Positions 36,023-51,522 are shown, counted from the first letter of the stretch. The stretch is DNA of 64,000 nt from a virus (IMGVR_UViG_3300014204_000107:107468-171467), one strand, 5' to 3'. Notes: generated from the letters alone by a model not told the origin. Made by a program: numbers and translations.

Positions 36023-36423
36023 AACTAAAAGAATTAAAGCAATTGATTAAAGAATGTATCAATGAAGAAATGCATTCAAGCAAATACCATGAACTTCCTC
36101 CAATGATTACATTAGATATTCCAAATGAATTAACTAACCTTAGCGAATTTGTAAAGTTATTAAGAGAATTTGTTGCAGATAATAATACAGATGCATTTAA
36201 GTTAGTATTGGAAATCTTTAATAAAGAATATGATACACCATATGTTAATTCCGGCGTTGAGAAAATGCATAGTGCATTGAAACAAGGATATTTTGTTCAA
36301 ACCATTCAAACAAATACTGCATGGAACAAATACCATAAAAAGTTTAAAGTAATTGTACAATTAACACCAATTGCAACACAAAAACAAACTGATTTAGTAA
36401 GAAGCATGGGACCATTAGATTAA
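36019..36423 (+). CDS. hypothetical protein with ELKQLIxE N-terminal motif
   Basis: MKLKELKQLIKECINEE. Confidence 0.75.
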   Translation: MKLKELKQLIKECINEEMHSSKYHELPPMITLDIPNELTNLSEFVKLLREFVADNNTDAFKLVLEIFNKEYDTPYVNSGVEKMHSALKQGYFVQTIQTNTAWNKYHKKFKVIVQLTPIATQKQTDLVRSMGPLD

Positions 36424-36437
36424 TAAGGAGAAATAAA

Positions 36438-36875
36438 ATGAATAAAGCAAATTTAAAGAAATTAATTAAAGAAGAAGTACTCGCAGAACTTAAAAATAAA
36501 AGCAAACTTACTGAAACAGTAGATGACCAATCGGCAACTGCACTATTTGGAAAAATAAAAACACAAATAGCAATGCTAAATAGAGCCATTACTAAACCTA
36601 AAGAATTAGCATTTCTTATGGCTGGCTTGATTAAGGCAGTAGCAGCAAATGAATCATTTGGACCAGCGCTAGCAAATAACATGAACTATAAATATGCTCT
36701 TAATTATTTAAATAAATTAGCCGGTGATTTAGCAAAAGACCAAGGAGACCAGCCAGACCAGCAAAAAGGACAGCCTCCTCAACAACCACCACAAGGACAA
36801 CCACAACAACAGCAGCAACAAGTACCACCTGCACCTAAACAACCAACAATGCAACAGCAAGGGCCAACTAAATAA
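36438..36875 (+). CDS. hypothetical protein with ELKQLIxE-like motif and Q/P-rich tail
   Basis: MNKANLKKLIKEEV; C-terminal QQKGQPPQQPPQGQPQQQQQQ. Confidence 0.75.
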   Translation: MNKANLKKLIKEEVLAELKNKSKLTETVDDQSATALFGKIKTQIAMLNRAITKPKELAFLMAGLIKAVAANESFGPALANNMNYKYALNYLNKLAGDLAKDQGDQPDQQKGQPPQQPPQGQPQQQQQQVPPAPKQPTMQQQGPTK

Positions 36876-36879
36876 TATT

Positions 36880-37368
36880 ATGACACGAGCAGAACTAAAG
36901 CAATTAATCAAAGAAGAAGTTAGACTGGCAATCAAAGAAGTAGATACTCGGGGCAATCCAGAAACCTTTGGTGAGTTGGCAGAAATAATAACCAGCATCG
37001 TTAAACAACAATATAAGCAAGCAGTTAAAAAAGGAGCATTATCAGCATTAATTGACCAAGTCGCAAGCTTAATTCCAGGTGCTACTAATGTTAAATCAGC
37101 ACTTGAATTCTTTAAAACTGTTTATAACGCAAGGGATGATAAGAAAACAAATAGTTGGTTAGATAGATTAAATGTAGACGATGACTTTTCTGCTATAGTA
37201 GATGATTCAATAGAGAACCAATTTATAAAAGATTTAGTAGAATGGATATCCAAACAACCACAAGATGCAAGATTGCCTGAAGACTTTGATATAAATGAAA
37301 AATTAACAGCTTACTTGGCAAACAAATATAACCAAAGAACATTGACGGGCAACCAGCCGCAAAAATAA
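36880..37368 (+). CDS. hypothetical protein with ELKQLIxE N-terminal motif
   Basis: MTRAELKQLIKEEV. Confidence 0.75.
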   Translation: MTRAELKQLIKEEVRLAIKEVDTRGNPETFGELAEIITSIVKQQYKQAVKKGALSALIDQVASLIPGATNVKSALEFFKTVYNARDDKKTNSWLDRLNVDDDFSAIVDDSIENQFIKDLVEWISKQPQDARLPEDFDINEKLTAYLANKYNQRTLTGNQPQK

Positions 37369-37710
37369 GATAAATATGAATGAATTTTATTATTCAAATA
37401 TGTTTGATACTAAAGCAATTGAGTATGTTATTATAATTATATTTTTATTATTGTTAATACCCTTTTCAACTTATCTTAATAAACCTAGAAAAAAACATAA
37501 TTAATATGCTATTAAAGCATTAATATCATTTAGATTTGGATAATAGAAAATTTTTACTTACATTTACAACAGATTTTTAGATAAACAACAAAAATAAACG
37601 ATTTATTGCTTAAAAAGCACAAACAAAAAAAATGTTAAAAAAAGTTTGGAAATTATCATTTTTTTTCATACTTTTACATAGTTATTACAAACCAACAAAA
37701 TAAAATTGAA

Positions 37711-37876
37711 ATGAGAACAGTGAATACATATAATACCAAGAACATTTGCGCCAGCATTAATTATGATGCATGGACAGGTAAAGGAGTACGTTTGAAAACA
37801 AGCTAGGTATTTAGTATTCCCATTATCATAAAAATATAAATTATGAAGAAACCTAGCCCAACCAGCTAGGTTTTTT
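37711..37876 (+). promoter_or_regulatory. leader-peptide attenuator of the + strand tRNA array
   Basis: 31-aa leader 37711-37806 ending AGC TAG; gctaggt (37802-37808) can pair with acctagc of terminator aaacctagc-ccaacca-gctaggttt-ttt (37849-37876). Confidence 0.7.
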
Positions 37877-37908
37877 CGTTTCGGTTCTTTCTAATATTGT
37901 AATTAAAT

Positions 37909-37979
37909 GCCTCTGTAGCTTAACGGTGAAGCAATTGGCATAATTTGGGTAGGTAGCTTAATTGGCAAAGCGCAGATAT
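37909..37979 (+). pseudogene. two tandem tRNA 5'-half remnants
   Basis: gcctctg-ta-gctt-aacggtg-aagc and gggtagg-ta-gctt-aattggca-aagc; no anticodon or T arms. Confidence 0.6.
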
Positions 37980-38050
37980 TGGTCTATGGTGAAAAGGTAT
38001 CACGGGAAACTGTTAATTTTCGATTCTTGGTTCGATCCCAAGTAGGCCAG
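37980..38050 (+). tRNA. tRNA-Asn(GTT)
   Basis: acceptor tggtcta/taggcca, loop ctGTTaa, T loop ttcgatc. Confidence 0.85.
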
Positions 38051-38121
38051 CTAAAAAATAATTTTTAAGACCGCTATAATTTTCAGCTTTATACTATTTA
38101 TAATAAAACAGGAGAATTATT

Positions 38122-38787
38122 ATGTCGTATGTATGTAAAAAATGTGGAAAAATATTTGAAAAACAAAGAGCACTAATGGGTCATTGTGTAACTCATTCAA
38201 TTAAAGTACAAGTCAAAAAAATAAAAACACAAGAAAAAAATAAAATTAAATCAAATAAAAAGCATATATGCAAATACTGTAATTTAGAATTTGAAACGGG
38301 GCCATCATTAGGAACACATACAAGAAATTGTATAAGTAATCCTAAAAGAGAAGATATGATAAAGCGGGGACACATTAATCGTTCAATATCAACAAATAAT
38401 GATGAATATCGGGCTAAATTAAGTGCAGCCGTTACTGCTGGTATAATGAAAAGAGTTAAAGCTGGTACTTGGCATACAAGCTTTAAAAAAACAAGAACAT
38501 ATGATTATAAAGGTGAAAGACTTCATGGTAAATGGGAATTGGAATATGCAAAATGGTTAGATAACAATAATATAAAATGGAAACGACCAAAAGATAGATT
38601 TCATTATATATTTGAAGAAAAAGATCATTATTATACACCAGATTTTTATTTAGTTGATACTAATGAATACGTTGAAATAAAGGGATATGAAACAGATAAA
38701 GATAGAGCCAAATGGAAATATTTTAAATTAAAATTAATAATACTAAAAGGTAAAGATTTGCGAGCCATGGGAATTAATGTTTGGTAA
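38122..38787 (+). CDS. C2H2 zinc-finger PD-(D/E)xK endonuclease
   Basis: CKKC..H..H, CKYC..H..C, YTPDFYL...VEIKGY. Confidence 0.8.
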   Translation: MSYVCKKCGKIFEKQRALMGHCVTHSIKVQVKKIKTQEKNKIKSNKKHICKYCNLEFETGPSLGTHTRNCISNPKREDMIKRGHINRSISTNNDEYRAKLSAAVTAGIMKRVKAGTWHTSFKKTRTYDYKGERLHGKWELEYAKWLDNNNIKWKRPKDRFHYIFEEKDHYYTPDFYLVDTNEYVEIKGYETDKDRAKWKYFKLKLIILKGKDLRAMGINVW

Positions 38788-38844
38788 TATTTAAATCCGG
38801 CCTTGCCCCAATAAATTGTTCTTTAAAATATTTTTTAATAAATT

Positions 38845-38912
38845 GCCGGTGATCCAGGGAGAAGACAGGTCTGTAAAACCTCAGCTAGAAGGCTCGCGTC
38901 CTTCCACCGGCA
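38845..38912 (+). tRNA. atypical short tRNA-like gene, anticodon GTA
   Basis: gccggtg/caccggc, aggt-ctGTAaa-acct, no long variable arm, T loop ctcgcgt. Confidence 0.55.
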
Positions 38913-38933
38913 CAATTAGTTCTTTAAAATAAT

Positions 38934-39028
38934 GCCGCAAGTAACATCAGTGGACTGTACACCCATTCTGCGTAACAAATAGATGTAAGGTACTTCGCAG
39001 TAAATAGGTTCGAATCCTATCAGCGGCA
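38934..39028 (+). ncRNA. tRNA-like RNA whose anticodon arm is replaced by an insert containing GGTACTTCG (degenerate Y-RNA-like)
   Basis: gccgc/gcggc ends, intact T arm atagg-ttcgaat-cctat, no recognisable anticodon loop. Confidence 0.4.
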
Positions 39029-39037
39029 CAAAATATC

Positions 39038-39107
39038 GATCCGGACGTATAACGGTTGTATACCGCGTTGTCTGCGCGAGAGGAGGGGTTCGAATCCCAC
39101 CGGGTCG
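39038..39107 (+). tRNA. tRNA-Asp(GTC), degenerate
   Basis: gatccgg/ccgggtc, cgcg-ttGTCtg-cgcg, weak T stem. Confidence 0.55.
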
Positions 39108-39112
39108 GCGAT

Positions 39113-39258
39113 AATTGATAGTGACTAAAAGAGTTACTTCGTATTCCAAACGAGAAATGCAGTGTTCGAATCCTGCCGGCCGTGCTAATAATTTAATACC
39201 ATACGGCTGTGGTCTAATGGCAAGACGCTAAAAATACTCTTTTAAATTTTCTTCAATT
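39113..39258 (+). ncRNA. YrlA-like Y RNA
   Basis: terminal stem aattga/tcaatt and taaaagagt/actctttta with TTACTTCG; inside, T arm, then acceptor-like stem closed by a loop (cggccgt/acggctg), then D arm. Confidence 0.7.
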
Positions 39259-39264
39259 ATACTT

Positions 39265-39338
39265 ATTCTCGTATATCAATTGGTGAGATTATCTGCCTGA
39301 TAAGCAGAAGGTTATGGGTTCAAATCCCGTCGAGAATA
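39265..39338 (+). tRNA. tRNA-Ile(GAT)
   Basis: attctcg/cgagaat, tctgc-ctGATaa-gcaga. Confidence 0.9.
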
Positions 39339-39340
39339 CA

Positions 39341-39448
39341 AAGTTGTGGCAACAGTAAAAGCTACTTCGTGCGAATAGTTCGCAATTTGTCTTCTAAACA
39401 AACCATCCGGTGCAATCCCGGCTGTTCTCTTACAAACTTTCCCAACTT
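39341..39448 (+). ncRNA. second Y-RNA-like gene (reduced)
   Basis: aagttg/caactt ends, GCTACTTCG motif, internal anticodon-like (cttctaa) and T-like arms. Confidence 0.5.
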
Positions 39449-39452
39449 AAAT

Positions 39453-39527
39453 GGTCTATTTGGCCTCATGGTGAGGAACCAGACTGTCACTCTGGTAAAA
39501 TCTACGGATCAAAACCGTGATAGATCG
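39453..39527 (+). tRNA. tRNA-Asp(GTC)
   Basis: ggtctat/atagatc, ccaga-ctGTCac-tctgg. Confidence 0.75.
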
Positions 39528-39536
39528 CAAATAAAT

Positions 39537-39609
39537 GGGTTGCCATGTTCCAAGGCTGGCGAAGGACGCCTGCAACGTCTTTGGTGGGGTTCGATTCCCC
39601 AGCGATCCA
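39537..39609 (+). tRNA. tRNA-Ala(TGC)-like (alternative register GCA/Cys)
   Basis: gggttgc/gcgatcc with G3:U70 and A73; loop cctgcaa. Confidence 0.55.
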
Positions 39610-39621
39610 CGCATAAAATAT

Positions 39622-39719
39622 GCAACTGGTCCAATCAAAGGGATTGCAGATTTCAATAAAATCTATAACAGGATCATGTTAAAGCTAAACATGATTGGGT
39701 TCGAATCCCGCCCGTTGCT
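39622..39719 (+). tRNA. tRNA-Sec/allo-tRNA-like gene with TCA in a distorted anticodon loop
   Basis: 8-bp acceptor gcaactgg/cccgttgc, long D stem caatc/gattg, 9-bp extra arm gatcatgtt/aacatgatt, agat-ttcaataaa-atct. Confidence 0.45.
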
Positions 39720-39762
39720 CAATTTAATGGTTCATTGACATCTTGGATAATTTTGTAATATT

Positions 39763-39833
39763 GTCCGCAAGCCTGATGATGAGGGATTCTGTCTGCAAAA
39801 CAGAAGATGTTGGCTTAAACCCAACTGCGGACT
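39763..39833 (+). tRNA. tRNA-Cys(GCA)
   Basis: gtccgca/tgcggac, U73, ctGCAaa. Confidence 0.8.
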
Positions 39834-40076
39834 CTTTGAAATATTGCAAGGGCAGCCATATGTGGTGTATGGTGTTAAACATTTCTAACCCTTGCAATCT
39901 TATTAATAATGCATGAATAACTAACAATTATTCTCAGCATTACTGCAAAGACAAGTAATTGCCTTTGCAACGAATTCGACGGTGGATCGTACGTCCAAAA
40001 TGCGTAAGCATTAATTGTAGGTGAAGCCGTCCCATCAGGATGTTTCGTACGTTCATCTCGGGAAAAACGTACACAC

Positions 40077-40150
40077 GCGGGATTCGCATAGTTGATTAGT
40101 GCGTCTGACTTCCAATCAGAATTTCGCGGGTTTGAGTCCCGCATCCCGCA
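40077..40150 (+). tRNA. tRNA-Gly(TCC)
   Basis: tctga-ctTCCaa-tcaga. Confidence 0.85.
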
Positions 40151-40154
40151 CAAT

Positions 40155-40227
40155 GCCTTTGAAACATTTAATGGATGATGCCCCGCCTTGTAAGCGGGAG
40201 AATGCGGCTCGATTCCGCACGAAGGCT
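40155..40227 (+). tRNA. tRNA-Thr(TGT)
   Basis: ccgc-ctTGTaa-gcgg. Confidence 0.85.
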
Positions 40228-40238
40228 CAATAATATAT

Positions 40239-40309
40239 GCACTATTCGTATAACGGTAGTATGCTGCGTTGCCAGCGCAGAGATGTCAATTCAACTTTGA
40301 TATAGTGCT
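40239..40309 (+). tRNA. tRNA-Gly(GCC)
   Basis: ctgcg-ttGCCag-cgcag, U73. Confidence 0.85.
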
Positions 40310-40316
40310 CAAATAT

Positions 40317-40389
40317 AGTAACATAGCTCAATTGGTGGAGCGTTTGCCTGATACGCAAAAGGATGTGTGTTCGATTCACATTGTCACTA
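40317..40389 (+). tRNA. tRNA-Ile(GAT)
   Basis: ttgc-ctGATac-gcaa. Confidence 0.8.
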
Positions 40390-40400
40390 CAAAATAAACT

Positions 40401-40474
40401 GCTCCTATGGTGTAATTTGGAAGCATTTTTGCCTTACATGCAAACGGCTATTGGTTCGAATCCAATTGGGAGCA
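40401..40474 (+). tRNA. tRNA-Val(TAC)
   Basis: tttgc-ctTACat-gcaaa. Confidence 0.9.
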
Positions 40475-40479
40475 CAAAT

Positions 40480-40566
40480 GTAGTCGTGGCCGAAATAGGA
40501 TTGAGGCTCCAGCCTTTTAAGCTGGGATCCGTAAGGTGTATGTGGGTTCGAGCCCCACCGACTACA
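40480..40566 (+). tRNA. tRNA with Lys(TTT) anticodon and Leu-like long variable arm
   Basis: ccagc-ctTTTaa-gctgg; 3-bp D stem, ~16-nt extra arm, A73. Confidence 0.75.
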
Positions 40567-40572
40567 CAATTT

Positions 40573-40645
40573 GCCGAGGTGGTACAAAAGATTAAAACGC
40601 ATCGTTGGTATCGATGAGATTCCGGTTTGACTCCGGACCACGGCT
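40573..40645 (+). tRNA. tRNA-Thr(GGT)
   Basis: catcg-ttGGTat-cgatg. Confidence 0.8.
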
Positions 40646-40650
40646 CAAAT

Positions 40651-40723
40651 GACTCGCTAACTCAATTGGTAGAGTACCACCCTTTTAAGGTGGGAGTTCC
40701 GGAATCATGCTCCGGGCGGGTCA
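40651..40723 (+). tRNA. tRNA-Lys(TTT)
   Basis: ccacc-ctTTTaa-ggtgg. Confidence 0.85.
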
Positions 40724-40734
40724 CAAAGTAACAT

Positions 40735-40820
40735 GCATTCGTATCCGTAGCGGCGAACGGTTCAGACTCTTAATCTGATGATGTAACAATCCACCGTGGG
40801 TTCGATTCCCACCGAATGCA
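40735..40820 (+). tRNA. tRNA with Lys(CTT) anticodon and long variable arm
   Basis: tcaga-ctCTTaa-tctga; ~17-nt extra region, A73. Confidence 0.75.
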
Positions 40821-40832
40821 CAATAAAAATAA

Positions 40833-40905
40833 ATGGGAGAGAAGTTTAAAAACAAAACTTTCTTACTTTTCTCAATTAAATGTAGCGATTAGAGAGTTAC
40901 TTCGG
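40833..40905 (+). ncRNA. degenerate Y-RNA-like remnant (3' motif then 5' motif)
   Basis: ttacttttctcaatt followed by aatgtagcgattagagagttacttcg. Confidence 0.45.
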
Positions 40906-41012
40906 TAAAACAACAATCTGTAAAATTGTACATTGTATTTAAACTTTATGTTTAATATTTTATTAATTATTTTTTATTATTGAACTATATATTATAAACA
41001 AGGAGATTTATA

Positions 41013-41777
41013 ATGTATTATTTGGTATATAAAATAACAAACAAATTAAATAATAAAATCTATATTGGTTGCCACATAACTGAAAAATTTAATGACAAAT
41101 ATATGGGTAGTGGTAGATTAATTAGAAAAGCAATTAAAAAGTATGGGTTAGAAAATTTTACTAAAGCAGTCTTATATAATTTTGATAACCAACTTGATAT
41201 GTTGAAGAAAGAAGCGGAGTTGGTTAATAAAGAGTTTATTAAACGCAAAGACACATATAATATTACCGAAGGTGGTACGTTTAATACTAAAGGAATTGCA
41301 GTAGTTAAAGATGCTAATGGTAATGTATTATTTGTTCCTGCAAAAGATAAAAGAATTAAAGATAGAATATTGGTTGGAATGACAACGGGACTTGTTCCTG
41401 TTAAAGATATCAATGGCAATATATTTAGCATTGGCACGAATGATCCAAAATACTTGTCAGGAGAATTTGTTCATATATCTAAAGGTCTTGTTACAGCAAA
41501 AGATAAAGATAGCAATTATTATAATGTTTCAATTGATGATGAAAGAATTAAGTCCGGTGAATTAGTTGGTACAATGAAAGGATTAAAACACACGGATGAA
41601 GCAAAAAAGAAAATTGGAATGGCTAACAAAATACATCAAATGGGCAGTGGGAATAATCAATATGGAACTTGTTGGATTTATAATGTTAAGCTAAAAGAAA
41701 ATAAGAAAATAAAAACTGAAGATCTTGCGTCTTATTTAATAGACGGGTGGATTAAAGGTAGAAAAATGAAATTTTAA
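41013..41777 (+). CDS. Seg-like GIY-YIG homing endonuclease (copy 1)
   Basis: YLVYKITN..NNKIYIG.H...YMGSG; repeated VKDxxGNxFxVxxxDxRxxSGELV units. Confidence 0.85.
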   Translation: MYYLVYKITNKLNNKIYIGCHITEKFNDKYMGSGRLIRKAIKKYGLENFTKAVLYNFDNQLDMLKKEAELVNKEFIKRKDTYNITEGGTFNTKGIAVVKDANGNVLFVPAKDKRIKDRILVGMTTGLVPVKDINGNIFSIGTNDPKYLSGEFVHISKGLVTAKDKDSNYYNVSIDDERIKSGELVGTMKGLKHTDEAKKKIGMANKIHQMGSGNNQYGTCWIYNVKLKENKKIKTEDLASYLIDGWIKGRKMKF

Positions 41778-41782
41778 TATAC

Positions 41783-41877
41783 GGGGAATAAGCATTCGGT
41801 GCTATTACTTTCCTAATTTTCTCAGTTAATGTAGTGACTGGAGAGTTACTTCGGAGGTTCAATCCCTCTGTTCCCCT
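41783..41877 (+). ncRNA. circularly permuted Y RNA (tRNA-order) candidate
   Basis: acceptor ggggaat/gttcccc, D arm gcat/gtgc, T arm ggagg-ttcaatc-cctct; anticodon arm replaced by Y-stem 3' strand plus 5' strand (actttcc/ggagagt, TTACTTCG). Confidence 0.65.
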
Positions 41878-41882
41878 CAAAT

Positions 41883-41954
41883 GCGTCTGTAGTGTAATGC
41901 GTAGCACAAGGGCTTCCAAACCCCTTCGTAAGAGTTCGAATCTTTTCAGGCGCG
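41883..41954 (+). tRNA. tRNA-Trp(CCA)
   Basis: loop ttCCAaa, G73. Confidence 0.8.
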
Positions 41955-42186
41955 CAAGGCAATATCATAGCAAGAATGTATTTTATTATTAGCATTTTTG
42001 TTAGGATATAATATGATGTATGAGATTTCATACATTAAGTCGAAATTAGGGATGTAATGTATGATATTTCATACAAATCTATTAGGTTTGATTTGCTCGA
42101 CTTTTATATTAGGATGATGTAGGATATTACCCAATATAAAACGTCTAACCTAACTTACCTAATCGATGCAGAATTGAAAATACTAT

Positions 42187-42258
42187 GCCGGTATATTTTA
42201 ACAGGTAGAATAAATCACTCGTAATGATTAGATACGGACTCAGCTTCTGTTGCCGGCT
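42187..42258 (+). tRNA. tRNA-Thr(CGT)
   Basis: aatca-ctCGTaa-tgatt; atypical T loop ctcagct. Confidence 0.7.
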
Positions 42259-42269
42259 CAACAAAATTT

Positions 42270-42341
42270 GCTCCTATGGTGTAATGGATAGCATTAGAAT
42301 CCCCTAAATTTTAAGTATAGGTTCGAGCCCTATTAGGAGTG
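42270..42341 (+). tRNA. tRNA-Arg(CCT)
   Basis: agaat-ccCCTaa-atttt. Confidence 0.75.
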
Positions 42342-42450
42342 CAAACATAATTAAATTTATAAAAAAGCAATTATAGCATTTAAGAAAAATTTTTGTTTTT
42401 TTATTTTTTTTCTTATATTTATTGAAAACCAAGGAAAGTACAAAAACATT

Positions 42451-42753
42451 ATGGTTGGTGACATTTACAAGTTGTCGGGTGCTAATAGCAATATTTCGCA
42501 AAAAATAGGAGCCATAGGTATCGTTGTGCAAGAGTTAGCCGATTTATACTTTCTTTGCGGCCAATCTAAACTTGTTCTATTTGCTAATGGAGACTATGAA
42601 GAATTTAATACACATGAGCAAGAATATTTCCTTAATAAAGTTGGCCATTCATCGGAACATGAGCATTATAAATTTACCAATGCTATGCAACTAAATAAAG
42701 ACTACGAGCATGGGTTATGGTACAATGTATTCATAAGAAATTCTACTAAATAA
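42451..42753 (+). CDS. hypothetical protein
   Basis: 100-aa ORF with its own promoter-like box. Confidence 0.65.
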   Translation: MVGDIYKLSGANSNISQKIGAIGIVVQELADLYFLCGQSKLVLFANGDYEEFNTHEQEYFLNKVGHSSEHEHYKFTNAMQLNKDYEHGLWYNVFIRNSTK

Positions 42754-42756
42754 TAT

Positions 42757-42829
42757 GCCACCTTCGTATAACGGATAGTACAACGTGCTTCTACCGCGTT
42801 CGGTGTGGGTTCGAATCCCATGGGTGGTA
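42757..42829 (+). tRNA. tRNA-Arg(TCT)
   Basis: aacgtg-ctTCTac-cgcgtt. Confidence 0.85.
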
Positions 42830-42855
42830 CAATAAACAACAATTTAAAATTAAAA

Positions 42856-43377
42856 ATGGGCAAAACCAATTACAGAATTAACCAAGAAATAAAAGACGAT
42901 AAAGTTAAAGTTATATTTGATAGCGGAGACCAAAAAATTCTTCAAACTTATATAGCTATTAATATAGCAAATAAAGAAGGATTAGATTTAGTTGAAGTAG
43001 GGAAGAATGGCGAATTTCCAATATGTAAAATTCTTGATTACAGGAAGTTTATATATGACCGTGAAAAAAAGGAAAAAGAAAACAAGAAAAAGCAAGTAAA
43101 AATTGAAACAAAGGAAATAAGATTTACTCCTAATACGGGTAAGCATGATTTAGAATTTAAAAAACAACATATAATTGCCTTTTTAAAGGGTGGCAATAAA
43201 GTAAAAATATCAGTTTTCTTCAAAGGGCGTGAAAAAGAAAAGCCAGAACGGGGAGAACTTATATTATACCAACTAATGCAAGAACTAATTGAAGTTAGTA
43301 AAGTTGAAAAATTGCCGAAATTAGAAGGCAATTATCTGTCAACAACACTAACTCCAAAAACAAATGGAAAAATTTAA
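42856..43377 (+). CDS. infC: translation initiation factor IF-3
   Basis: RINQEI, GLDLVEV..PICKILDY.KF.Y, KEIRFTPN.G.HD...K, G.KVKISVFFKGRE. Confidence 0.95.
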   Translation: MGKTNYRINQEIKDDKVKVIFDSGDQKILQTYIAINIANKEGLDLVEVGKNGEFPICKILDYRKFIYDREKKEKENKKKQVKIETKEIRFTPNTGKHDLEFKKQHIIAFLKGGNKVKISVFFKGREKEKPERGELILYQLMQELIEVSKVEKLPKLEGNYLSTTLTPKTNGKI

Positions 43378-43843
43378 AGCATACAATACAGGAATACTTG
43401 AAGGTGGAACAATTGAATACATCAAGAACTACCTTGAAACGCATGACAATGTTACTGTTTATGTTGGAACCGACTCGGTTAACAACAAAACAAGAACAGT
43501 ATTTGCGTCTGTTATCCTTATGTACCGCAAAGGAAAGGGTGGACATTACATCTATGATGTGAAGTTCATGCCAAAAATTCGCGATATGCATTTAAGACTT
43601 TCTAAAGAAATTGAATATTCTCGCACAATTGCAAAGGAATTGCAAGATGCTGGTTTAACTGTTGCTATTGACTTAGATATCAACCCAAGTGATAACCATG
43701 CATCACACGCATTAAAGTACTGGATTGGTAGTTTAATATATGAAGGATTTGATGTTCGCATTAAACCGGTATCTTGGGCTGCTAGCCGAGCTGCAGACTT
43801 TGTACTTGGCAAATATAAGAAAAGAAAGGAAAAGAAGAAATAA
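43364..43843 (+). CDS. RNase H-like YkuK (DUF458) family protein
   Basis: VYVGTDS, RL..E..YS, DLDINP, KP.SWAAS.AAD. Confidence 0.85.
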   Translation: MEKFKAYNTGILEGGTIEYIKNYLETHDNVTVYVGTDSVNNKTRTVFASVILMYRKGKGGHYIYDVKFMPKIRDMHLRLSKEIEYSRTIAKELQDAGLTVAIDLDINPSDNHASHALKYWIGSLIYEGFDVRIKPVSWAASRAADFVLGKYKKRKEKKK

Positions 43844-43925
43844 CACTATTAAGTTTATGCTATACAGGTATCGAAAGAAAATTCCACGTTGTGCATAATG
43901 GTGCAAGTAGCATAAACTTTTTTAC

Positions 43926-44303
43926 GGGCCATACAGGCTTTGATTGCAATGACGATGAAATGTAAGCAAGCATCACCTTATCTAATATGTGATTCATAAA
44001 TTATTAGGTAAACAACTAAACGGCAACGCACAAATAAATGCAGAGGATATAATGTCATATCCTACTATTGTAACAGTTACTAAACCTGTTGCAAGGGTTG
44101 AGCACTTCGAAGAAGTGCTAGCATAAACAGCAAAATTAGTAAGCACGTTTTCTTGCGTGTAAAACACAGGATACAGTTTTTTCTGCTTGTTCTCGAAATA
44201 ATAATAAAAGCAGATATTTTGTTCGCTAAGAAAAACGAAATAAGCTTGTAGAAAATATTTATAAACATTGTAAGACTCGAGTTCGAATCTCGAATGGTCC
44301 ACC
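43926..44303 (+). ncRNA. ssrA: tmRNA
   Basis: acceptor gggccat/atggtcc with G3:U70 and A73, T arm ctcgag-ttcgaat-ctcga, P2 ttgcaatg/cattgtaa, pk1-like atcac/gtgat plus ctaata/tattag, tag frame 44022-44126. Confidence 0.9.
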
Positions 44304-44350
44304 GTGTTGGGTAGAAGACACCAACTAATGTGCCACACACGATGAGAAAT

Positions 44351-44511
44351 GGGCTGTTCACCCATAGTGGAACGTAGAAAGTATAGGGAAAACTTTCGGG
44401 AGTGCCTACCTTCTCTGCGCAGGGAGAACAAGTTTAATTCTAACCAAACCAATGTGCGGCCGTGCATTGGAAGTAGCAAATTGGAAACCTCATATGCTTT
44501 TGGGACAGCCT
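44351..44511 (+). ncRNA. unassigned ~160-nt structured RNA candidate
   Basis: ggctgttc/ggacagcc closing stem; hairpins at 44411-44428 and 44449-44470. Confidence 0.45.
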
Positions 44512-44785
44512 GGTGCTTGCAAGTTGAATAGATTAGAGCATCAATTTTTTGAAGGAGTCTATACTTATTTAGGTATTAGACTTTTTTTGGAGGCGCAAAA
44601 TGGAATCGGAGCTACTAAAGCATATTATAAAGCTATTAAAGTTATAAATAGCTGCAATACATCTGACCAATTATTTTCTTCTGTACAATATTATAAACTA
44701 TATAAAACACTATATCCAGATGAGGTGACTAATATTGCAATGCTAAAAGTTATTTTTACTAAAAAATTTAGAAATTTAAAACATA

Positions 44786-46681
44786 CTAAATCTTAATCAC
44801 TCCTGCTATTTTAACATACAGTTCTTCAAATGAAAATGGTTTGCTGATATATTCGTCAAAGCCATTTTGAAGTGCTTTATCTTTTTCATTATCCATAGTA
44901 ATTGCTGTTACCGCAATTAATTTTATATTACTGTCATATGCTTTTGCTTCTTTTACTATTTGATAGCCATCTTTATATGGTAGATGAATATCACACAAAA
45001 TTAAATCAACTCTATAATTTTTTAATACATTTAAAATATTCTTACCAGTATATGAACTTATAATATTTGCATTAGTTTCCTTTAGTAATAGTTTTAATAA
45101 TTCATATGAATCTTTATCGTCGTCTATAATTAGCACAGTTTTATTAGTTAAATTTGGTATGCATTCACTTAAAGAATTAGTTATAGTTGAATTATCTTCA
45201 ATATCTCCATCAACAGCCATATATTTAACATCGAAATAGAACTTAGACCCGGACCCAAGATTTGAATTTATTTTTATAGTTGAAAAATTAAGAATATTAG
45301 CAAGCTTTTTTGCAATTGATAATCCAAGTCCAACGCCTCTATATTTCTTTCCTGATGCAATTTGTTTAAATGGGCTAAATAAATATAATTGATCCTTTTT
45401 AGATATACCTCTGCCGGTATCTTTAACATAAATGGTTAATTCATCATTGTTGATAATATCATATCCAAATTCAATAACACCTTCATCTGTAAATTTAAGT
45501 GCGTTATCAAGTAAATTATTTAATATTTGTTTTAATCTATCACCATCAGTATTAATGATTATATCTTTATCTTTGATAATATTAAGTTTTATAAACAAAT
45601 TTTCTTTATTTAGTTTTGTTTTTTCTTGCTCATATACAATAAATAAATCAAATAATAATTTATTTAATTTAACTGGCCCTATGTCAAGACTAAGTTGATC
45701 AGATTCTAACTTGGAAAAATCAAGTATATCATCTATAAGTCGCAATAATTTGTTACCATTATTATTGATAATATTAACATAATCAATTTTATCTGACGTG
45801 GGCAAGTCTTTCTGCAACAATAAATTAGAAAATCCTATTATCGCATTCATTGGTGAACGTATTTCATGACTCATGCTGGCCAGGAAGATTGATTTTAATT
45901 TGAATGCATTTTCTGCATCTTCCTTGGCCTTCTTAATATCAGAAGTTAATGTGATATGTTCCGTAATATCATTAATTATTGATATTATATATTTATAACC
46001 ACCAATTTGTATTATTTCTGCATTAAAAAGTGTATTCTTTTTAATACCATCCCTATCTTTAAATATAACAGGCAAATTTTTGATTTTATTATTTTTTGAT
46101 AACAATAACCTAATATTATAAAAATCGGCCTCATCTGAATATAAATTTAGTTCCAATGCGGACTTTCCTATGACATCATTTTTTTTATATTTTGAAATAT
46201 TAACAAACGCGGTATTAATATCTGTGATTTTGTTTGTTTTAATATTTGTAATCAGTATTGGCAATGGTGTTGCATTAAATATAACTTTGAAATTCTTTTC
46301 AAATGTGGTTTCACTATAAGTTGATGAGCCAATACCAATTAATATTTCTTCATTTTTAATAATTCCTTTTATTATTCTTATGCTTATTGGAATTAATTTA
46401 CCAGAAGATGATACCCACGGTATTTTGCATGATACAACACTGTCATCTATCATTTTCTTAAATGTAGATTGGACACATTTTCTTTTATCTAGGTGGTGGA
46501 GGTCAAATATTTGTAATGATAGTAATTCTTTTTTACTATATTCTAATATTTCTTGCGCCGTTTTATTTGAATATAAAATATTTCCGCTATAATTTACAAT
46601 TATCACGCAATCCGATAGATTGTCTATTAAACTAATTATATTTTTACAATAACCACTATCAAAAATATCTTTATCGTTCAT
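44786..46681 (-). CDS. hybrid sensor histidine kinase (2 PAS-HisKA-HATPase-REC)
   Basis: SMSHEIRSPMNAIIGF, QILNNLLDNALKFT, DTGRGI, GLGLSI; REC IIDDD..CDIHLP..SKP. Confidence 0.95.
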   Translation of the reverse strand: MNDKDIFDSGYCKNIISLIDNLSDCVIIVNYSGNILYSNKTAQEILEYSKKELLSLQIFDLHHLDKRKCVQSTFKKMIDDSVVSCKIPWVSSSGKLIPISIRIIKGIIKNEEILIGIGSSTYSETTFEKNFKVIFNATPLPILITNIKTNKITDINTAFVNISKYKKNDVIGKSALELNLYSDEADFYNIRLLLSKNNKIKNLPVIFKDRDGIKKNTLFNAEIIQIGGYKYIISIINDITEHITLTSDIKKAKEDAENAFKLKSIFLASMSHEIRSPMNAIIGFSNLLLQKDLPTSDKIDYVNIINNNGNKLLRLIDDILDFSKLESDQLSLDIGPVKLNKLLFDLFIVYEQEKTKLNKENLFIKLNIIKDKDIIINTDGDRLKQILNNLLDNALKFTDEGVIEFGYDIINNDELTIYVKDTGRGISKKDQLYLFSPFKQIASGKKYRGVGLGLSIAKKLANILNFSTIKINSNLGSGSKFYFDVKYMAVDGDIEDNSTITNSLSECIPNLTNKTVLIIDDDKDSYELLKLLLKETNANIISSYTGKNILNVLKNYRVDLILCDIHLPYKDGYQIVKEAKAYDSNIKLIAVTAITMDNEKDKALQNGFDEYISKPFSFEELYVKIAGVIKI

Positions 46682-46818
46682 GGGGTGGAATCAAGATGCT
46701 AATGCTAATTATATATATACCACATAGAATTTAAAATGTCAATATTATAATTAATTTTTTATTGCATTAGTTAGGTGGGAAAATAATGGCTTATAAAAAT
46801 TATTATATGCTATTTGTG

Positions 46819-46906
46819 CGGAGGGAACAGGATTCGAACCTGCAACTCAATTGCTTGAGACTTGTTTTCCAAACAAGAACGGTCAACCATTACGTCTTAC
46901 CCCTCC
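46819..46906 (-). tRNA. tRNA-Ser(GGA)
   Basis: cttgt-ttGGAaa-acaag, long arm, G73. Confidence 0.85.
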
Positions 46907-46913
46907 ATATTTG

Positions 46914-47000
46914 CGGTAAACATAGGAATCGAACCTAATTCAATTGCTTGAACGCATTGTTTTCGAGACAAGCATGCTAACACATAGCATTTTATTTACC
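46914..47000 (-). tRNA. tRNA-Ser(CGA)
   Basis: loop ctCGAaa, long arm. Confidence 0.8.
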
Positions 47001-47012
47001 AAATATTAGTTG

Positions 47013-47102
47013 CGGAAGAAATTGGAATCGAACCAAAGCCGGCTCTGCACCGACCACACCGTTTTCAAGACGGGTCCGCTAACACATAGCGGTTTATCTT
47101 CC
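47013..47102 (-). tRNA. tRNA-Ser(TGA)
   Basis: loop ctTGAaa, long arm. Confidence 0.8.
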
Positions 47103-47112
47103 ATTTTATTTG

Positions 47113-47199
47113 CGGAGAACAACGGAGTCGAACCGTATCCAGTTTCCCGAACGCATTGCTTAGCAGGCAAGCCCCATTACACAAATGGGTTTATTCTCC
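47113..47199 (-). tRNA. tRNA-Ser(GCT)
   Basis: loop ctGCTaa, long arm. Confidence 0.8.
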
Positions 47200-47203
47200 A
47201 TAT

Positions 47204-47288
47204 TGGTGACCTTGGTGGAAGTCGAATCCACAACCCTGCCGGGTACGGTTTCTTAGACCGTTGCGTTTACCAGTTTCGCCACAAAGCC
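47204..47288 (-). tRNA. tRNA-Leu(AAG)
   Basis: acggt-ctAAGaa-accgt, long arm, encoded ACCA. Confidence 0.85.
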
Positions 47289-47295
47289 ATTTTAG

Positions 47296-47366
47296 TAGTT
47301 CTAATAGGACTCGAACCTATACTCATTGCTTCAGAGGCAATGTTGCTACATTACAATCATAGAACT
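47296..47366 (-). tRNA. tRNA-Gln(CTG)
   Basis: attgc-ctCTGaa-gcaat. Confidence 0.75.
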
Positions 47367-47448
47367 ATTATTACATATTAGGTAAACAGTTCCAGCTGAG
47401 CCCTAAGACCAGCACTACCGACCTGTAAGTAGTTCATAATATGTAATG

Positions 47449-47523
47449 TGCTCCTGCTCAGATTCGAACTGAGATATTTACGCTTTTAAGACGTTTGCCA
47501 GCGGCCGATTGGGCTACAGGAGC
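47449..47523 (-). tRNA. tRNA-Leu(TAA), short variable loop
   Basis: acgt-ctTAAaa-gcgt; 5-nt variable region. Confidence 0.75.
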
Positions 47524-47531
47524 ATTATTTG

Positions 47532-47602
47532 TTGTCCATAATAGGGTCGAACTATTATCAAGAGATCCAAGGTCTCCTATGCTGCCATTGCACCAATGGA
47601 CA
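47532..47602 (-). tRNA. tRNA-Gln(TTG)
   Basis: ggaga-ccTTGga-tctct. Confidence 0.75.
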
Positions 47603-47641
47603 ATTATTCAAAATATTATTCAAATTTCTAATAAAAATAAG

Positions 47642-47730
47642 TGCTAATACTCAGATTCGAACTGAGACTGTCTCTAAAGTGTTGCCATGATTTCTAAGAC
47701 CATCGAGTTTGCCAATTTCTCTATATTAGC
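47642..47730 (-). tRNA. tRNA-Leu(TAG)
   Basis: atggt-ctTAGaa-atcat, long arm. Confidence 0.85.
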
Positions 47731-47737
47731 AATATAG

Positions 47738-47811
47738 TACCCCAGCAGGAATTCGAATCCTGAATCTTTTGAGTTTGAATCAAACGCAATTGCCAATTAT
47801 GCTACTGAGGC
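47738..47811 (-). tRNA. tRNA-Leu(CAA), short variable loop
   Basis: tttga-ttCAAac-tcaaa; 5-nt variable region. Confidence 0.8.
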
Positions 47812-47817
47812 ATTTTG

Positions 47818-47904
47818 GGTGTCGGACCAGATTCGAACTGGCAATACTCTAGCGAGTTTCTGGGGCCACAACCCAGTCGGATTCCATTTACCGGCTACAG
47901 ACAC
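47818..47904 (-). tRNA. tRNA-His(GTG) with extra arm
   Basis: ctggg-ttGTGgc-cccag, C73, extra hairpin actc-gcta-gagt. Confidence 0.75.
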
Positions 47905-47915
47905 AATCTTCAATG

Positions 47916-47988
47916 TAGAGAATGTGAGATTTGAACTCCTCCTCTGCGCCCCAAACGCAGAATGCAACCTGGTTACAACTCATTCTCT
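47916..47988 (-). tRNA. tRNA-Pro(TGG)
   Basis: ctgcg-ttTGGgg-cgcag. Confidence 0.8.
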
Positions 47989-48748
47989 ATTTTAATCTCC
48001 TTCCTACAATCCACCCACTATTTAAGTAGCATTGCAAGTCATTGACTTTAATTTTTTTATTTTCTTTTAGTTCAACATTATAAATCCAGCAAGTACCATA
48101 TTGAGAATTTTTATTTCCTTTTTGGTGTATGCTGTTTGCTTTACCTATTTTCTTTTTTGTTTCTTCTGTGTGTTTAATTCCAGTCATCGTACCAACTAAT
48201 TCGCCAGATTTAATTCTTAAATCATCACTTGGTACACAAAAATAATTACCGTTTTTGTCTTTTGCAACAGTTGTACCTTTTCGTACGTGCACAAGATCCC
48301 CAGACATATATTTTGTATCTGATATTGGGATGCAAAAATAATTATCATCTTTATCTTTTACTGTTACAAATCCTTTAGATGTTGCTACTAATTCACCAGA
48401 CAAATATCGTTGATCATTTACACTTACACTAAAAGTATTGCCAGTTTTATCTTTGACGGCAACAAATCCTTTCGTGTTTATTACTCCACCCTCAATTATA
48501 TTATATGTATCTTTGCGTTTAATGAATTCTTTATTAACGAGTTCTGATTCTTTCTTCAACATATCAAGCTTATTATCAAAATTATATAGAATTGCTTTAG
48601 TAAAGTTTTCTAAACCATATTTTTTAATAGACATCCACAAATATTTGCCCGACCCCATATATCCATCATTAATATTTTTAGTAACATGACACCCAATATA
48701 GATTTTACCATTAATTGTGTTCGTTATTTTATATACCAAATAATACAT
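47987..48748 (-). CDS. Seg-like GIY-YIG homing endonuclease (copy 2)
   Basis: close paralog of 41013-41777 with a near-identical upstream leader; its TAG overlaps the tRNA-Pro 5' end. Confidence 0.85.
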   Translation of the reverse strand: MYYLVYKITNTINGKIYIGCHVTKNINDGYMGSGKYLWMSIKKYGLENFTKAILYNFDNKLDMLKKESELVNKEFIKRKDTYNIIEGGVINTKGFVAVKDKTGNTFSVSVNDQRYLSGELVATSKGFVTVKDKDDNYFCIPISDTKYMSGDLVHVRKGTTVAKDKNGNYFCVPSDDLRIKSGELVGTMTGIKHTEETKKKIGKANSIHQKGNKNSQYGTCWIYNVELKENKKIKVNDLQCYLNSGWIVGRRLK

Positions 48749-48834
48749 TATAAATCTCCTTGTTTATAATATATAGTTCGATATTTAAAATAATCGAAAA
48801 TAATATTGAACTATTTCAAAGAACTTTAATTGAG

Positions 48835-48907
48835 TGAACACAATGGAATTCGAATCCATATCGTAGGCTCCGCAAACCTACATTCTATCCAGTTGAACTA
48901 TGCGTCC
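48835..48907 (-). tRNA. tRNA-Arg(GCG)
   Basis: taggt-ttGCGga-gccta. Confidence 0.85.
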
Positions 48908-48914
48908 ATTTTAG

Positions 48915-48987
48915 TACCCCACAAGGGAGTCAAACCCTTATCGTATGATCCGAAGTCAAACATTCTATTCAGTTGAACTAGCGGGGC
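48915..48987 (-). tRNA. tRNA-Arg(TCG)
   Basis: tttga-ctTCGga-tcata. Confidence 0.85.
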
Positions 48988-49001
48988 ATATTACACATCA
49001 T

Positions 49002-49145
49002 AAAAAAACCCGGCAGTGGTTGCTGTCGGGCTTTTCGAAGAGGAGTATTATATGTTTAAATATATTACATCAATAGCTAGCCCGACTGTCCGTTATGTAA
49101 CGGGAGTTGTGATGGTAGACTGGATTGACGCAATAATGTTTTCAT
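49002..49145 (-). promoter_or_regulatory. leader-peptide attenuator of the - strand tRNA array
   Basis: 22-aa leader 49145-49077 ending GGC TAG; gtcgggct can pair with agcccgac of terminator cccgacag-caacca-ctgccggg-T7 (49030-49002). Confidence 0.7.
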
Positions 49146-49337
49146 GACAATTTTTGTTTTTATCTTGTTTTAAATAACTATGTAAAAGTAATAAAAAAAT
49201 ATGAAAAATCCAAGAAAAATTTAAAATATTTCATCTTTATGCTTTTTATGCATAAAAACTTGAACAGTTGATTTTTTCATTACTTGATACTTATTATAGG
49301 AAAATATAGTCAATAATCCAAATAAATTCTGAGAAAT

Positions 49338-49757
49338 ATGGTTAAATCAGCTGGCTTAGCAATAATTTACAATAAAATGATTCTCTTAACGCATCCAACT
49401 GGCGCATTATGGTGGTCATCATATGGCATTCCTAAAGGTTGGGTAGAACAAGGTGAAGATATTTATAGCACTGCTATTCGTGAAACTAAAGAAGAAGTTG
49501 GCATACAAATTCCATCTGAATTAATAGATAGCCAGCTGCATTCATTTTATTATATGAAAGATAATCAAGCATATAAGCAAATTTTTTATTATGTTGCACG
49601 AATAAATACGCTGGATAATATAAAATTATCTGGCTTAGTAGTACCCAAAAGCCAATTACAGCTGGAAGAAGTGGATTGGGCTGGCTTTTTAAATTATGAT
49701 GATGCAATCAAACGTATATTACCATTACAAAATCAATTATTAAATCTTATAAAATGA
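49338..49757 (+). CDS. NUDIX hydrolase
   Basis: GIPKGWVEQGEDIYSTAIRETKEEVG. Confidence 0.9.
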   Translation: MVKSAGLAIIYNKMILLTHPTGALWWSSYGIPKGWVEQGEDIYSTAIRETKEEVGIQIPSELIDSQLHSFYYMKDNQAYKQIFYYVARINTLDNIKLSGLVVPKSQLQLEEVDWAGFLNYDDAIKRILPLQNQLLNLIK

Positions 49758-49966
49758 AAGTTATATTTGATAGTAAATGCAATAGCATTATAATTGAATA
49801 CAAATTTATTAATATTCCTATTCAATATATTTATAATAAAGCGGTTAGTAGTCAATTTATGATCAATATATTTAATAAGAAATATAAAATATCACGTAAA
49901 AAGCATAAAAGATTATTTAAACTTTTTGTTAATACGCCGTGCAATAAATTTATAGTAATTAAATAG
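49754..49966 (+). CDS. hypothetical basic protein
   Basis: ATGA overlap. Confidence 0.45.
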   Translation: MKVIFDSKCNSIIIEYKFINIPIQYIYNKAVSSQFMINIFNKKYKISRKKHKRLFKLFVNTPCNKFIVIK

Positions 49967-49998
49967 GTTATACTATTTATAGTAAATGGAGAAATACA

Positions 49999-50382
49999 AT
50001 GAAAAATAAAATTCCAAGCATTTTAATTATTGATGATCAAGTTGATTTTTTATTAATGTTGAAACATATGCTTGATAATATTGGATTTACTAATATACAG
50101 TATCAAAAAAATGCATATCAGGCCCTTAAAGAATATGAGTTGTTTGATATAATATTTTTAGATTTAAAAATGCCGGGGATGTCGGGATTAGAGTTTTTAA
50201 AAAATATTAAGTCAACGCATAATATTAATAAATTTTTACCTAAAATTATAATAATAACATCTGATTCAGACCCAGTTACTAAATATGAATGCTTGCAAAA
50301 TGGCGCTGACGAATATATAATTAAACCAGCAAATAAAGATGCTATTATTAATGGTTTAAAAAAAATAAATGCTATTATATAG
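49999..50382 (+). CDS. single-domain response regulator (CheY-like)
   Basis: ILIIDD, FLDLKMPGMSG, IIITS, YIIKP. Confidence 0.9.
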   Translation: MKNKIPSILIIDDQVDFLLMLKHMLDNIGFTNIQYQKNAYQALKEYELFDIIFLDLKMPGMSGLEFLKNIKSTHNINKFLPKIIIITSDSDPVTKYECLQNGADEYIIKPANKDAIINGLKKINAII

Positions 50383-50611
50383 AATGAAATGTAAATATCA
50401 TACACCATGTGATGATTCATTAATCAAAAAATACTATTTATATGCTGATAATCATATATTTATCGTCACCACGCGTGCGCGCGTAATAAGCAATATAAGC
50501 TTATAATATTTTAAGCTATTCTTTATAAAAGAATAAAGCTTCATTGCATTACGCTTTATTCTCTTCATTAAAGCTTCGCTTTAATTCAGTTAATAAATTA
50601 TAATTATAATA

Positions 50612-51280: not shown

Positions 51281-51327
51281 ATAAAAAGATTACTATATAT
51301 TTGTAAAACCAATTAAATAAAAAAGTT

Positions 51328-51504: not shown

Positions 51505-51522
51505 ATATTATAGGAGAAATTA

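Follow-up and report, generated by a model that had tools for sequence, protein, structure and literature searches.

What controls the transcription of the transfer RNA (tRNA) genes that phages carry? To our knowledge, the regulation of phage tRNA genes is essentially unknown. The question is raised here by a stretch of 64,000 nucleotides of viral DNA (IMGVR_UViG_3300014204_000107:107468-171467), called the window below, which corresponds to bases 107,468-171,467 of a 299,351-bp IMG/VR phage genome with terminal repeats. ARAGORN identifies two convergent tRNA blocks and a transfer-messenger RNA (tmRNA) in the window, and we refer to the plus-strand block as array 2 and to the minus-strand block as array 3. 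Both are preceded by a short open reading frame (ORF) and by a GC-rich hairpin with a run of 6-7 T that starts 40-50 nt 3' of that ORF. An initial annotation, made from the sequence of the window, had reported these two ORFs with their TAG stops, and they exist where it placed them (Table 1). It counted two such array heads; the genome has three, the third belonging to an array outside the window (array 1). With a probability of about three in four, we take every array to be transcribed as a unit behind a leader-peptide attenuator, which would respond to how well the tRNAs of that array are supplied.

Leader codons and the tRNAs of the same array

In frame, each leader is enriched for codons that its array's tRNAs decode; no such enrichment is seen for the codons of the other array. 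The array 3 leader has 16 cognate codons out of 21, where phage codon usage would lead one to expect 5.1, and it samples 13 of the 14 tRNA species; neither the cognate count nor the species coverage was reached in any of 200,000 simulations. Its codons 4-17 (49136-49095), which encode the peptide segment LLRQSSLPSQLPLH, are all cognate to tRNAs of the array, the content of which at the relaxed threshold is Arg (two), Pro, His, Leu (four), Gln (two) and Ser (four). When only the default ARAGORN calls are used, 13 of 21 codons remain cognate and 10 of 11 species are sampled (p ~1e-5). For the array 2 leader, ARAGORN calls give 22 cognate codons out of 30 (p 0.004) and 13 of 14-15 species (p 0.002-0.006). 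The Tyr and Cys codons of this leader, non-cognate on those calls, match a Tyr(gta)-like and a Cys(gca) gene within array 2, both of which were missed by ARAGORN and are scored as tRNA by Rfam. With these two tRNAs included, their anticodons having been read by eye, the cognate count after the ATG rises to 25 of 30 (p 0.0007) and the coverage to 15 of 17 anticodon species. Scored against each other's arrays the two leaders fall below expectation (4/30 for the array 2 leader, 5/21 for the array 3 leader), and frames +1 and +2 of the same bases hold 5-9 cognate codons.

The 263-aa protein of array 1 has a relative (68% identity) in G001, a 160,910-bp IMG/VR contig that also carries tRNA arrays. 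Taken together, the first six leaders that we scored (arrays 1-3, two in G001 and one in contig L040) contain 79 cognate codons against 40.8 expected (z 7.2) and cover 50 of 55 tRNA species against 27 expected (z 6.9). The leader of the Arg/Leu/Gln array of G001 holds eight Arg, four Leu and four Gln codons, covering all tRNAs of that array, and the leader of its Ala/Glu/Leu/Ser/Cys array contains the run CLEASSEALA.

An independent set of phage leaders was assembled from IMG/VR loci selected solely by the pattern GGTTTTTT-N(1-14)-GTTCTTT with a tRNA no more than 250 nt downstream, the peptides being unseen at selection. This yielded 42 loci; the ORF of each was assigned by an automatic rule as the longest one starting with ATG, and 32 leaders remained once near-duplicates had been removed. 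An ATG ORF of 10-70 codons ends 8-53 nt before the hairpin in 40 of the 42 loci. In frame, the 32 leaders contain 373 cognate codons where 246 are expected (Stouffer Z 11.5, with 30 of the 32 positive); the corresponding Z values are -2.5 in frame +1 and -4.0 in frame +2. The observed mean was never reached when leaders and arrays were re-paired at random in 100,000 trials (p<=1e-5), and 217 of 262 tRNA species are sampled. Individual peptides serve as examples: a Pro/Pro/His/Gln array is preceded by a leader with ..QQQPQQHPQ.., an Asn/His/Thr/Lys array by one with ..NIHINTNTHKHNTT.. and a Lys/Val/Tyr array by one with ..YYFKKSYKKY... Because the window leaders are enriched in codons of their own arrays and the 32 loci behave likewise, what is sensed would be the availability of the tRNAs that the array encodes.

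Alternative pairing at the end of the leader ORF

The bases at the end of each window ORF (region 2) repeat the 3' arm of the downstream hairpin and can therefore pair with its 5' arm. In array 2 the strand AGCTAGGTA pairs with the terminator 5' arm AACCTAGC, and in array 3 AGTCGGGCTA pairs with AGCCCGAC. The energy of this duplex (E23) is -11.0 kcal/mol in array 2 and -17.0 kcal/mol in array 3, the latter to be compared with -11.9 kcal/mol for the array 3 hairpin itself. None of 1000 dinucleotide shuffles reached E23 in either array, and each of the two leaders ranks first among 37 natural leaders as a partner of its own terminator arm. The complementarity between the stop-codon bases and the terminator 5' arm, as first proposed from the sequence, is thus borne out for both. 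Compared with shuffles, the own-leader duplex gives a Fisher combined p of 4e-7 over the six leaders and 1e-15 over the 32 leaders, and its mean energy is -9.7 kcal/mol with the own leader against -6.9 kcal/mol with other leaders (permutation p<=1e-5).

Two further details of the initial annotation hold in part. It had noted the sequence CAACCA in both terminator loops, which is correct for arrays 2 and 3; the motif is absent from array 1 and from the relatives and so is not a conserved feature. It had also placed the terminators just before the first tRNA, which applies to array 3 (about 20 nt), whereas on the plus strand the first tRNA called by ARAGORN lies about 100 nt further on. A promoter cannot fit into the interval between terminator and first tRNA seen in array 3, and the tRNAs would therefore be made by read-through. 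A generic terminator scan lists neither the array 2 nor the array 3 hairpin, a miss that we put down to greedy stem extension pairing the upstream A-run with the T-tract. Searching 35000-52000 against Rfam with cmscan (E<=1) assigned neither a T-box nor any other cis-regulatory family to the leaders.

The median position of region 2 in the 32 leaders is -21..-13 nt from the stop, and in arrays 2 and 3 the stop lies within it. The cognate fraction is highest, at 0.57-0.73, in the stretch 11-17 codons before the stop and declines to 0.23 over the final six codons (Fisher p 2e-11). As the sensor codons lie upstream of region 2, a ribosome stalled on them would leave the partner strand free, and a ribosome at the stop would cover it. 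When nascent RNA was folded with a 27-nt ribosome mask, the 5' arm in array 2 was sequestered with a probability of 0.5-0.6 when the ribosome was in the early sensor codons and of 0.05-0.4 when it was at codons 12-24; with the ribosome at the last codons or the stop the value was 0.05-0.14. For array 3 the mask model gives about 0.75 in the early sensor codons versus 0.25-0.41 at the last codons or stop, and its equilibrium terminator probability drops from 0.58 to approximately 0 for stalls at codons 3-12. Behaviour at the stall versus at the stop is as expected for arrays 2 and 3, for one of the G001 arrays (G001-A) and for L040, and sequestration is greater in the stalled state than at the stop in 27 of the 32 independent leaders (Wilcoxon p 3e-6). 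Pairing and mask folding therefore agree with the geometry of ribosome-mediated attenuation that was originally put forward, in which the antiterminator is masked once a ribosome has reached the last codons and the stop.

The predicted state without a ribosome differs between units. The arm is then free in array 2 and G001-A (0.06-0.09), for which a 1:2 hairpin is predicted, as is termination when the leader is untranslated. In the truncated transcript of array 3 the arm is sequestered without a ribosome (0.79), as it is on average over the 32 loci (mean 0.70), and the 1:2 hairpin is not predicted for array 3 or for most loci.

From these observations we infer that the ORFs are translated and that transcription can terminate at the hairpins. 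The proposed course of events would start with transcription from a conserved Bacteroidota-type promoter and with translation of the short ORF some 35-40 nt downstream of it. In mid-ORF the ribosome would meet a run of sensor codons, roughly one per tRNA species encoded downstream, and thereafter the last codons and the stop, which overlap region 2 and could thus occlude its pairing with the 5' arm of the terminator 40-50 nt on. If the sensor codons are read fast, a ribosome at the stop would cover region 2, the terminator would fold and the polymerase would halt before the first tRNA. If any one of them is slow, as could result from a small or damaged host pool for that codon or from a phage tRNA that has not yet accumulated, the ribosome would stall upstream, region 2 would sequester the terminator arm and read-through would follow. 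The polymerase would next transcribe a boxA-like element, probably loading host Nus factors. The net effect would be negative feedback on tRNA supply. That a stall leads to read-through, and not the reverse, is suggested by the pairing geometry together with functional sense.

Two structural features of the leaders were observed in addition. In all three minimum free energy (MFE) folds the start-codon region pairs with bases just 3' of the U-tract, forming a closing stem (37690-37885, plus strand; 48995-49165, minus strand; L003:1525-1710). Such a stem would hide the ATG in read-through transcripts, or it may be mere pairing of A-rich with U-rich sequence. A motif CTAT(T)GATGTAAT is located at or just after the leader stop in array 3 (49076-49064, minus strand), array 1 (genome ~35,322) and G001-A (L038 ~3725), regardless of frame, and in array 3 it pairs with ORF codons 3-7 in the MFE fold.

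Promoter block, boxA-like elements and gene context

Every one of the three tRNA arrays of the phage begins alike. A whole-genome search with the plus-strand head located a block of approximately 75 nt at three sites, namely the two window sites in Table 1 and genome 35,150-35,220, which lies outside the window at the head of array 1. The block is near-identical across the three heads, and the leader ORFs start about 35-40 nt downstream of it. Its pattern, TTTG(G)-N20-TACTTTTA, fits the primary-sigma consensus of Bacteroidota, which we take to be -33 TTTG and -7 TAnnTTTG at a spacing of about 19-21 bp, with the last base being A and not G. The tRNAs of array 1 are Phe, Glu, Met, Ile(tat) and more.

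Two arrays of G001 open with a Bacteroidota promoter, a short ORF beginning ATG-AAA, a hairpin with T6, GTTCTTTAACA or GTTCTTTGAAT, and the first tRNA. The promoter of this relative carries TACATTTG, and the exact promoter block of our phage is present in neither G001 nor G002. A scan for the 17-nt promoter core returned unrelated chance matches only. Upstream of the array-C promoter of G001 (L039:2800-3180) there are four copies of a unit of about 20 nt (..ATTCTGTAAGGAAATAA..), with a fifth, diverged copy inside the leader ORF. The 263-aa protein of array 1 has one true relative, that in G001, and a search with the two-sequence alignment added none; for the IF3 protein no relatives were found in IMG/VR.

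Downstream of the hairpins are elements, not noted in the initial annotation, resembling boxA, the NusB/NusE site of ribosomal RNA operons, for which the consensus is GYTCTTTAANA (PMC5725501). This consensus is matched exactly in array 1 (GTTCTTTAATA, genome 35392), in G001-A and in L040. In array 2 a near match directly follows the T-run, and a second boxA-like element stands where the RNA block restarts behind an endonuclease gene (Table 1). Further exact or near copies occur at genome 37976 and 38139 (each at a restart of RNA genes behind a protein gene) and at genome 69616. The boxA-like element probably loads host Nus factors and would thereby give a termination-resistant polymerase over the long untranslated array. 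The motif also precedes tmRNA or tRNA genes in many unrelated viral contigs. In the IMG/VR contigs L105, L053 and L111, GTTCTTTAAAAATATGG is found directly before tmRNA genes, behind sigma-70-type promoters, and boxA seems to head the tmRNA genes of unrelated phages or prophages.

The genes around and between the tRNA blocks of the window encode IF3, an RNase H-like protein, a hybrid histidine kinase, a NUDIX protein and homing-endonuclease-like proteins, some of which interrupt the arrays. Between the boxA-like element of array 2 and its tRNA-Asn (37905-37979, plus strand) are two tRNA-like half-molecules (GCCTCTGTAGCTTAA.. and GGGTAGGTAGCTTAATTGG..), which may be decayed tRNA genes. Nothing resembling the leaders was found in the GenBank phages searched, the sole match being the SegD/SegH-like endonuclease gene. 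The runs listed as containing the stretch include no RNA run. Wherever they align cleanly, contigs from the three DNA sequencing runs (landfill, groundwater) show no difference from the window and so provide no natural leader variants.

Table 1. Positions of the leader, control and tRNA features of the three array heads; coordinates are those of the window unless marked as genome.
Feature	Array	Coordinates	Strand	Description
Promoter block	2	37614..37686	+	TTTG 37645-37648; TACTTTTA 37669-37676
Leader ORF	2	37711..37806	+	31 codons, then TAG
Antiterminator strand (region 2)	2	37801..37809	+	copy of terminator 3' arm; spans stop codon
Terminator	2	37850..37876	+	hairpin 37850-37872, 8-bp stem, loop CCAACCA, T6 ending 37876
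boxA-like element	2	37883..37897	+	GTTCTTTCTAA; directly 3' of T-run; two mismatches to GYTCTTTAANA (37884-37894)
tRNA array	2	37980..42830	+	16 tRNAs by ARAGORN default, 19 relaxed; interrupted by homing-endonuclease-like genes
Zinc-finger protein gene	2	38122-38787	+	weak match to phage endonuclease I; interrupts array
Second boxA-like element	2	38817..38830	+	TGTTCTTTAAAATA; RNA block resumes here, after endonuclease gene 38122-38787
Tyr(gta)-like tRNA	2	38845-38912	+	odd D arm, without long extra arm; anticodon read by eye from cloverleaf
Cys(gca) tRNA	2	39763-39833	+	anticodon read by eye from cloverleaf
Endonuclease-like gene	2	41013-41777	+	weak GIY-YIG (SegE-type) match; interrupts array
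Promoter block	3	49173..49245	-	TTGG 49213-49210; TACTTTTA 49190-49183
Leader ORF	3	49077..49145	-	22 codons, then TAG
Antiterminator strand (region 2)	3	49078..49087	-	8 perfect pairs with terminator 5' arm; spans stop codon
Terminator	3	49002..49033	-	hairpin 49033-49006, one A.C mismatch in stem, loop CAACCA, T7 49008-49002
Degenerate boxA-like stretch	3	48988..49000	-	directly before first tRNA; weak match, by eye
tRNA array	3	46818..48987	-	11 tRNAs by ARAGORN default, 14 relaxed; one homing-endonuclease-like gene inside
Endonuclease-like gene	3	47987-48748	-	weak GIY-YIG (SegE-type) match; interrupts array; about 70% DNA identity to T4-type SegD/SegH genes
Array head	1	genome 35,150-35,480 (L003:1455-1790, L035)		16-codon leader (MANIAIIRFMEVEFKT), hairpin with T5, exact boxA (GTTCTTTAATA), tRNA-Phe

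Alternative explanations and known attenuators

Several points weigh against the arrays being gated by attenuators that sense their own tRNAs. Both the codon match and the antiterminator are weaker in array 1 than in arrays 2 and 3: 7 of 15 leader codons are cognate (p 0.06), a weak case, and the antiterminator is not significant (p 0.29, rank 19 of 37). The codon match in the first six leaders was seen by eye before it was tested, a bias that does not affect the 32-locus set alone among our data. The limits of the arrays and some tRNA identities depend on relaxed ARAGORN thresholds or on cloverleaves read by eye, and the boxA-like stretch of array 3 is degenerate. Equilibrium folding keeps the terminator of array 2, array 1 and G001-A at any position of the ribosome; since this model never loses the array 2 terminator, the switch would have to be kinetic, depending on the order of synthesis, as in trp. 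Lastly, chromosomal Thr-Tyr-Gly-Thr operons, in a Flavobacteriales metagenome-assembled genome (L473) and in L553, have a -7 box and immediately behind it, where an ORF would find no space, a 7-bp GC hairpin, T7-8, the boxA element TGTTCTTTGA and the first tRNA. The array hairpin might accordingly have a role besides or other than termination, and may also serve the boxA signal. A scan of genome contigs, saturated with chance matches, found a tRNA downstream in 5 of 120 loci and a matched leader ORF in none.

The initial annotation, pointing to the lack of enrichment in any one amino acid, took the leaders to sense general translation failure, such that any loss of translation would free the antiterminator and the codon content of the leader would be irrelevant. 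The sequestered arm that folding without a ribosome predicts for array 3, and on average for the 32 loci, is in agreement with this, as failed initiation would also derepress many units. However, a switch of this kind leaves unexplained both the frame- and array-specific codon match, found in the window and again in the 32 loci, and the placement of the sensor codons upstream of region 2; for array 2 and G001-A it runs into a prediction of termination, the arm being left free in the no-ribosome state. The earlier view is therefore not supported, and we regard it as unlikely. An equally unlikely explanation takes up the chromosomal operons: instead of terminating transcription, hairpin, U-run and boxA would together load Nus factors as a single host-type signal or stabilise the 5' end. 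A ribosome on the leader ORF, coupled to the polymerase, would keep Rho off up to the synthesis of boxA, and stalls at hungry codons would lower transcription of the array. The same module without an ORF in the two chromosomal Bacteroidota operons speaks for it, as do the hairpin-less boxA copies at which RNA blocks restart inside arrays. Yet it neither needs nor predicts the complementarity between the end of the ORF and the hairpin 5' arm, the hairpins have the form of canonical intrinsic terminators (a GC stem, then 6-10 U), and the resulting positive feedback on tRNA supply would be without obvious use.

The remaining two explanations do away with the ORF as a sensor. The leaders could be non-coding structured RNAs or small RNAs, with the ORFs being chance frames in AT-rich sequence. 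Points in favour of this are that their folding surpasses that of shuffles (z -3.0 to -4.5), that bases after the U-tract pair with the ATG region in all three MFE folds, that the peptides have neither sequence nor length in common, and that some nucleotide motifs are kept regardless of frame. Confinement of the codon match to the ORF frame, the recurrence of an ATG ORF before the hairpin at nearly all of the independent loci (40/42) and the lack of any Rfam family matching the leaders make this highly improbable; a version in which a structured leader has paired 5' and 3' ends was dropped after the codon match proved frame-specific. Least credible of all is that the ORFs encode functional micro-proteins and that the terminator merely ends their mRNA. 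The A-rich upstream regions and the ATG-AAA/AGA starts do look, by eye, like those of ordinary genes of the phage, but the peptides are not conserved among paralogues or relatives, their composition follows the downstream tRNA set, and no promoter fits between terminator and first tRNA.

Attenuation governed by the array's own tRNAs can be compared with characterised leader-peptide systems. At the level of sequence, arrays 2 and 3 each have the parts by which such attenuators are recognised: a leader ORF, regulatory codons, an intrinsic terminator and an antiterminator. Regulatory codons are here understood as defined for multivalent attenuators (PMC1183508). The leaders of ilvGMEDA, ilvBN and thrL (Thr/Ile codons) resemble the phage units in being short, in having codons for several amino acids, and in their mutually exclusive terminator and antiterminator, the latter masked by the ribosome that finishes the peptide. 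The phage units differ in that they would regulate tRNA genes and not biosynthetic enzymes, so that the sensed molecules are the products, in that they are phage-encoded and followed by boxA, and in that their leaders draw on as many as about 18 amino acids, in many cases with one codon per tRNA species, where the ilv and thr leaders have runs of one to three amino acids. With trpL, hisL, leuL and pheL they share the ORF, a region 2 near the stop, a terminator with a U-tract and the presumed rule that slow decoding leads to read-through, although tandem runs of a single codon are not seen in the phage leaders. A further difference is that the 1:2 hairpin by which absent translation causes termination is predicted only in some phage units (array 2, G001-A); for many others read-through is predicted.

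The pheST operon with its pheM leader and the T-box riboswitches are similar in that genes of the decoding apparatus are controlled by the state of the matching tRNA. However, pheM controls a synthetase and not tRNA genes, and T-boxes bind uncharged tRNA directly, without a ribosome. As for the boxA-like element, its location before stable-RNA genes with a hairpin upstream is that of rrn-type boxA, the match being exact in array 1, G001-A and L040 and near in array 2. It is unlike rrn in lying downstream of a terminator that would be regulated and in heading phage tRNA arrays, and it is a candidate by sequence, with a degenerate copy in array 3. No leader-peptide attenuator and no leader peptide before tRNA genes was found in the full-text literature searched, subscription journals aside.

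A wider role is possible but, in our estimation, doubtful: such attenuators may act as a general tRNA homeostat of large phages and as a counter-defence sensor, in which cleavage by an anticodon nuclease or depletion of a sampled tRNA would cause a stall and switch the whole array on until decoding is restored. If true, these would be the first tRNA genes under ribosome-mediated attenuation that reads their own products. The use of one codon per downstream tRNA would link decoding speed to tRNA gene transcription in a testable way, and it suggests how phage tRNA arrays may answer host codon mismatch and tRNA-cleaving defences. A leader peptide would also predict the tRNAs downstream of it, as with the Tyr and Cys codons of array 2 and the two genes missed by ARAGORN. 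The module could supply compact parts for codon-specific sensors, and its order of attenuator, boxA and array would show a regulated stop combined with a processive antitermination signal.

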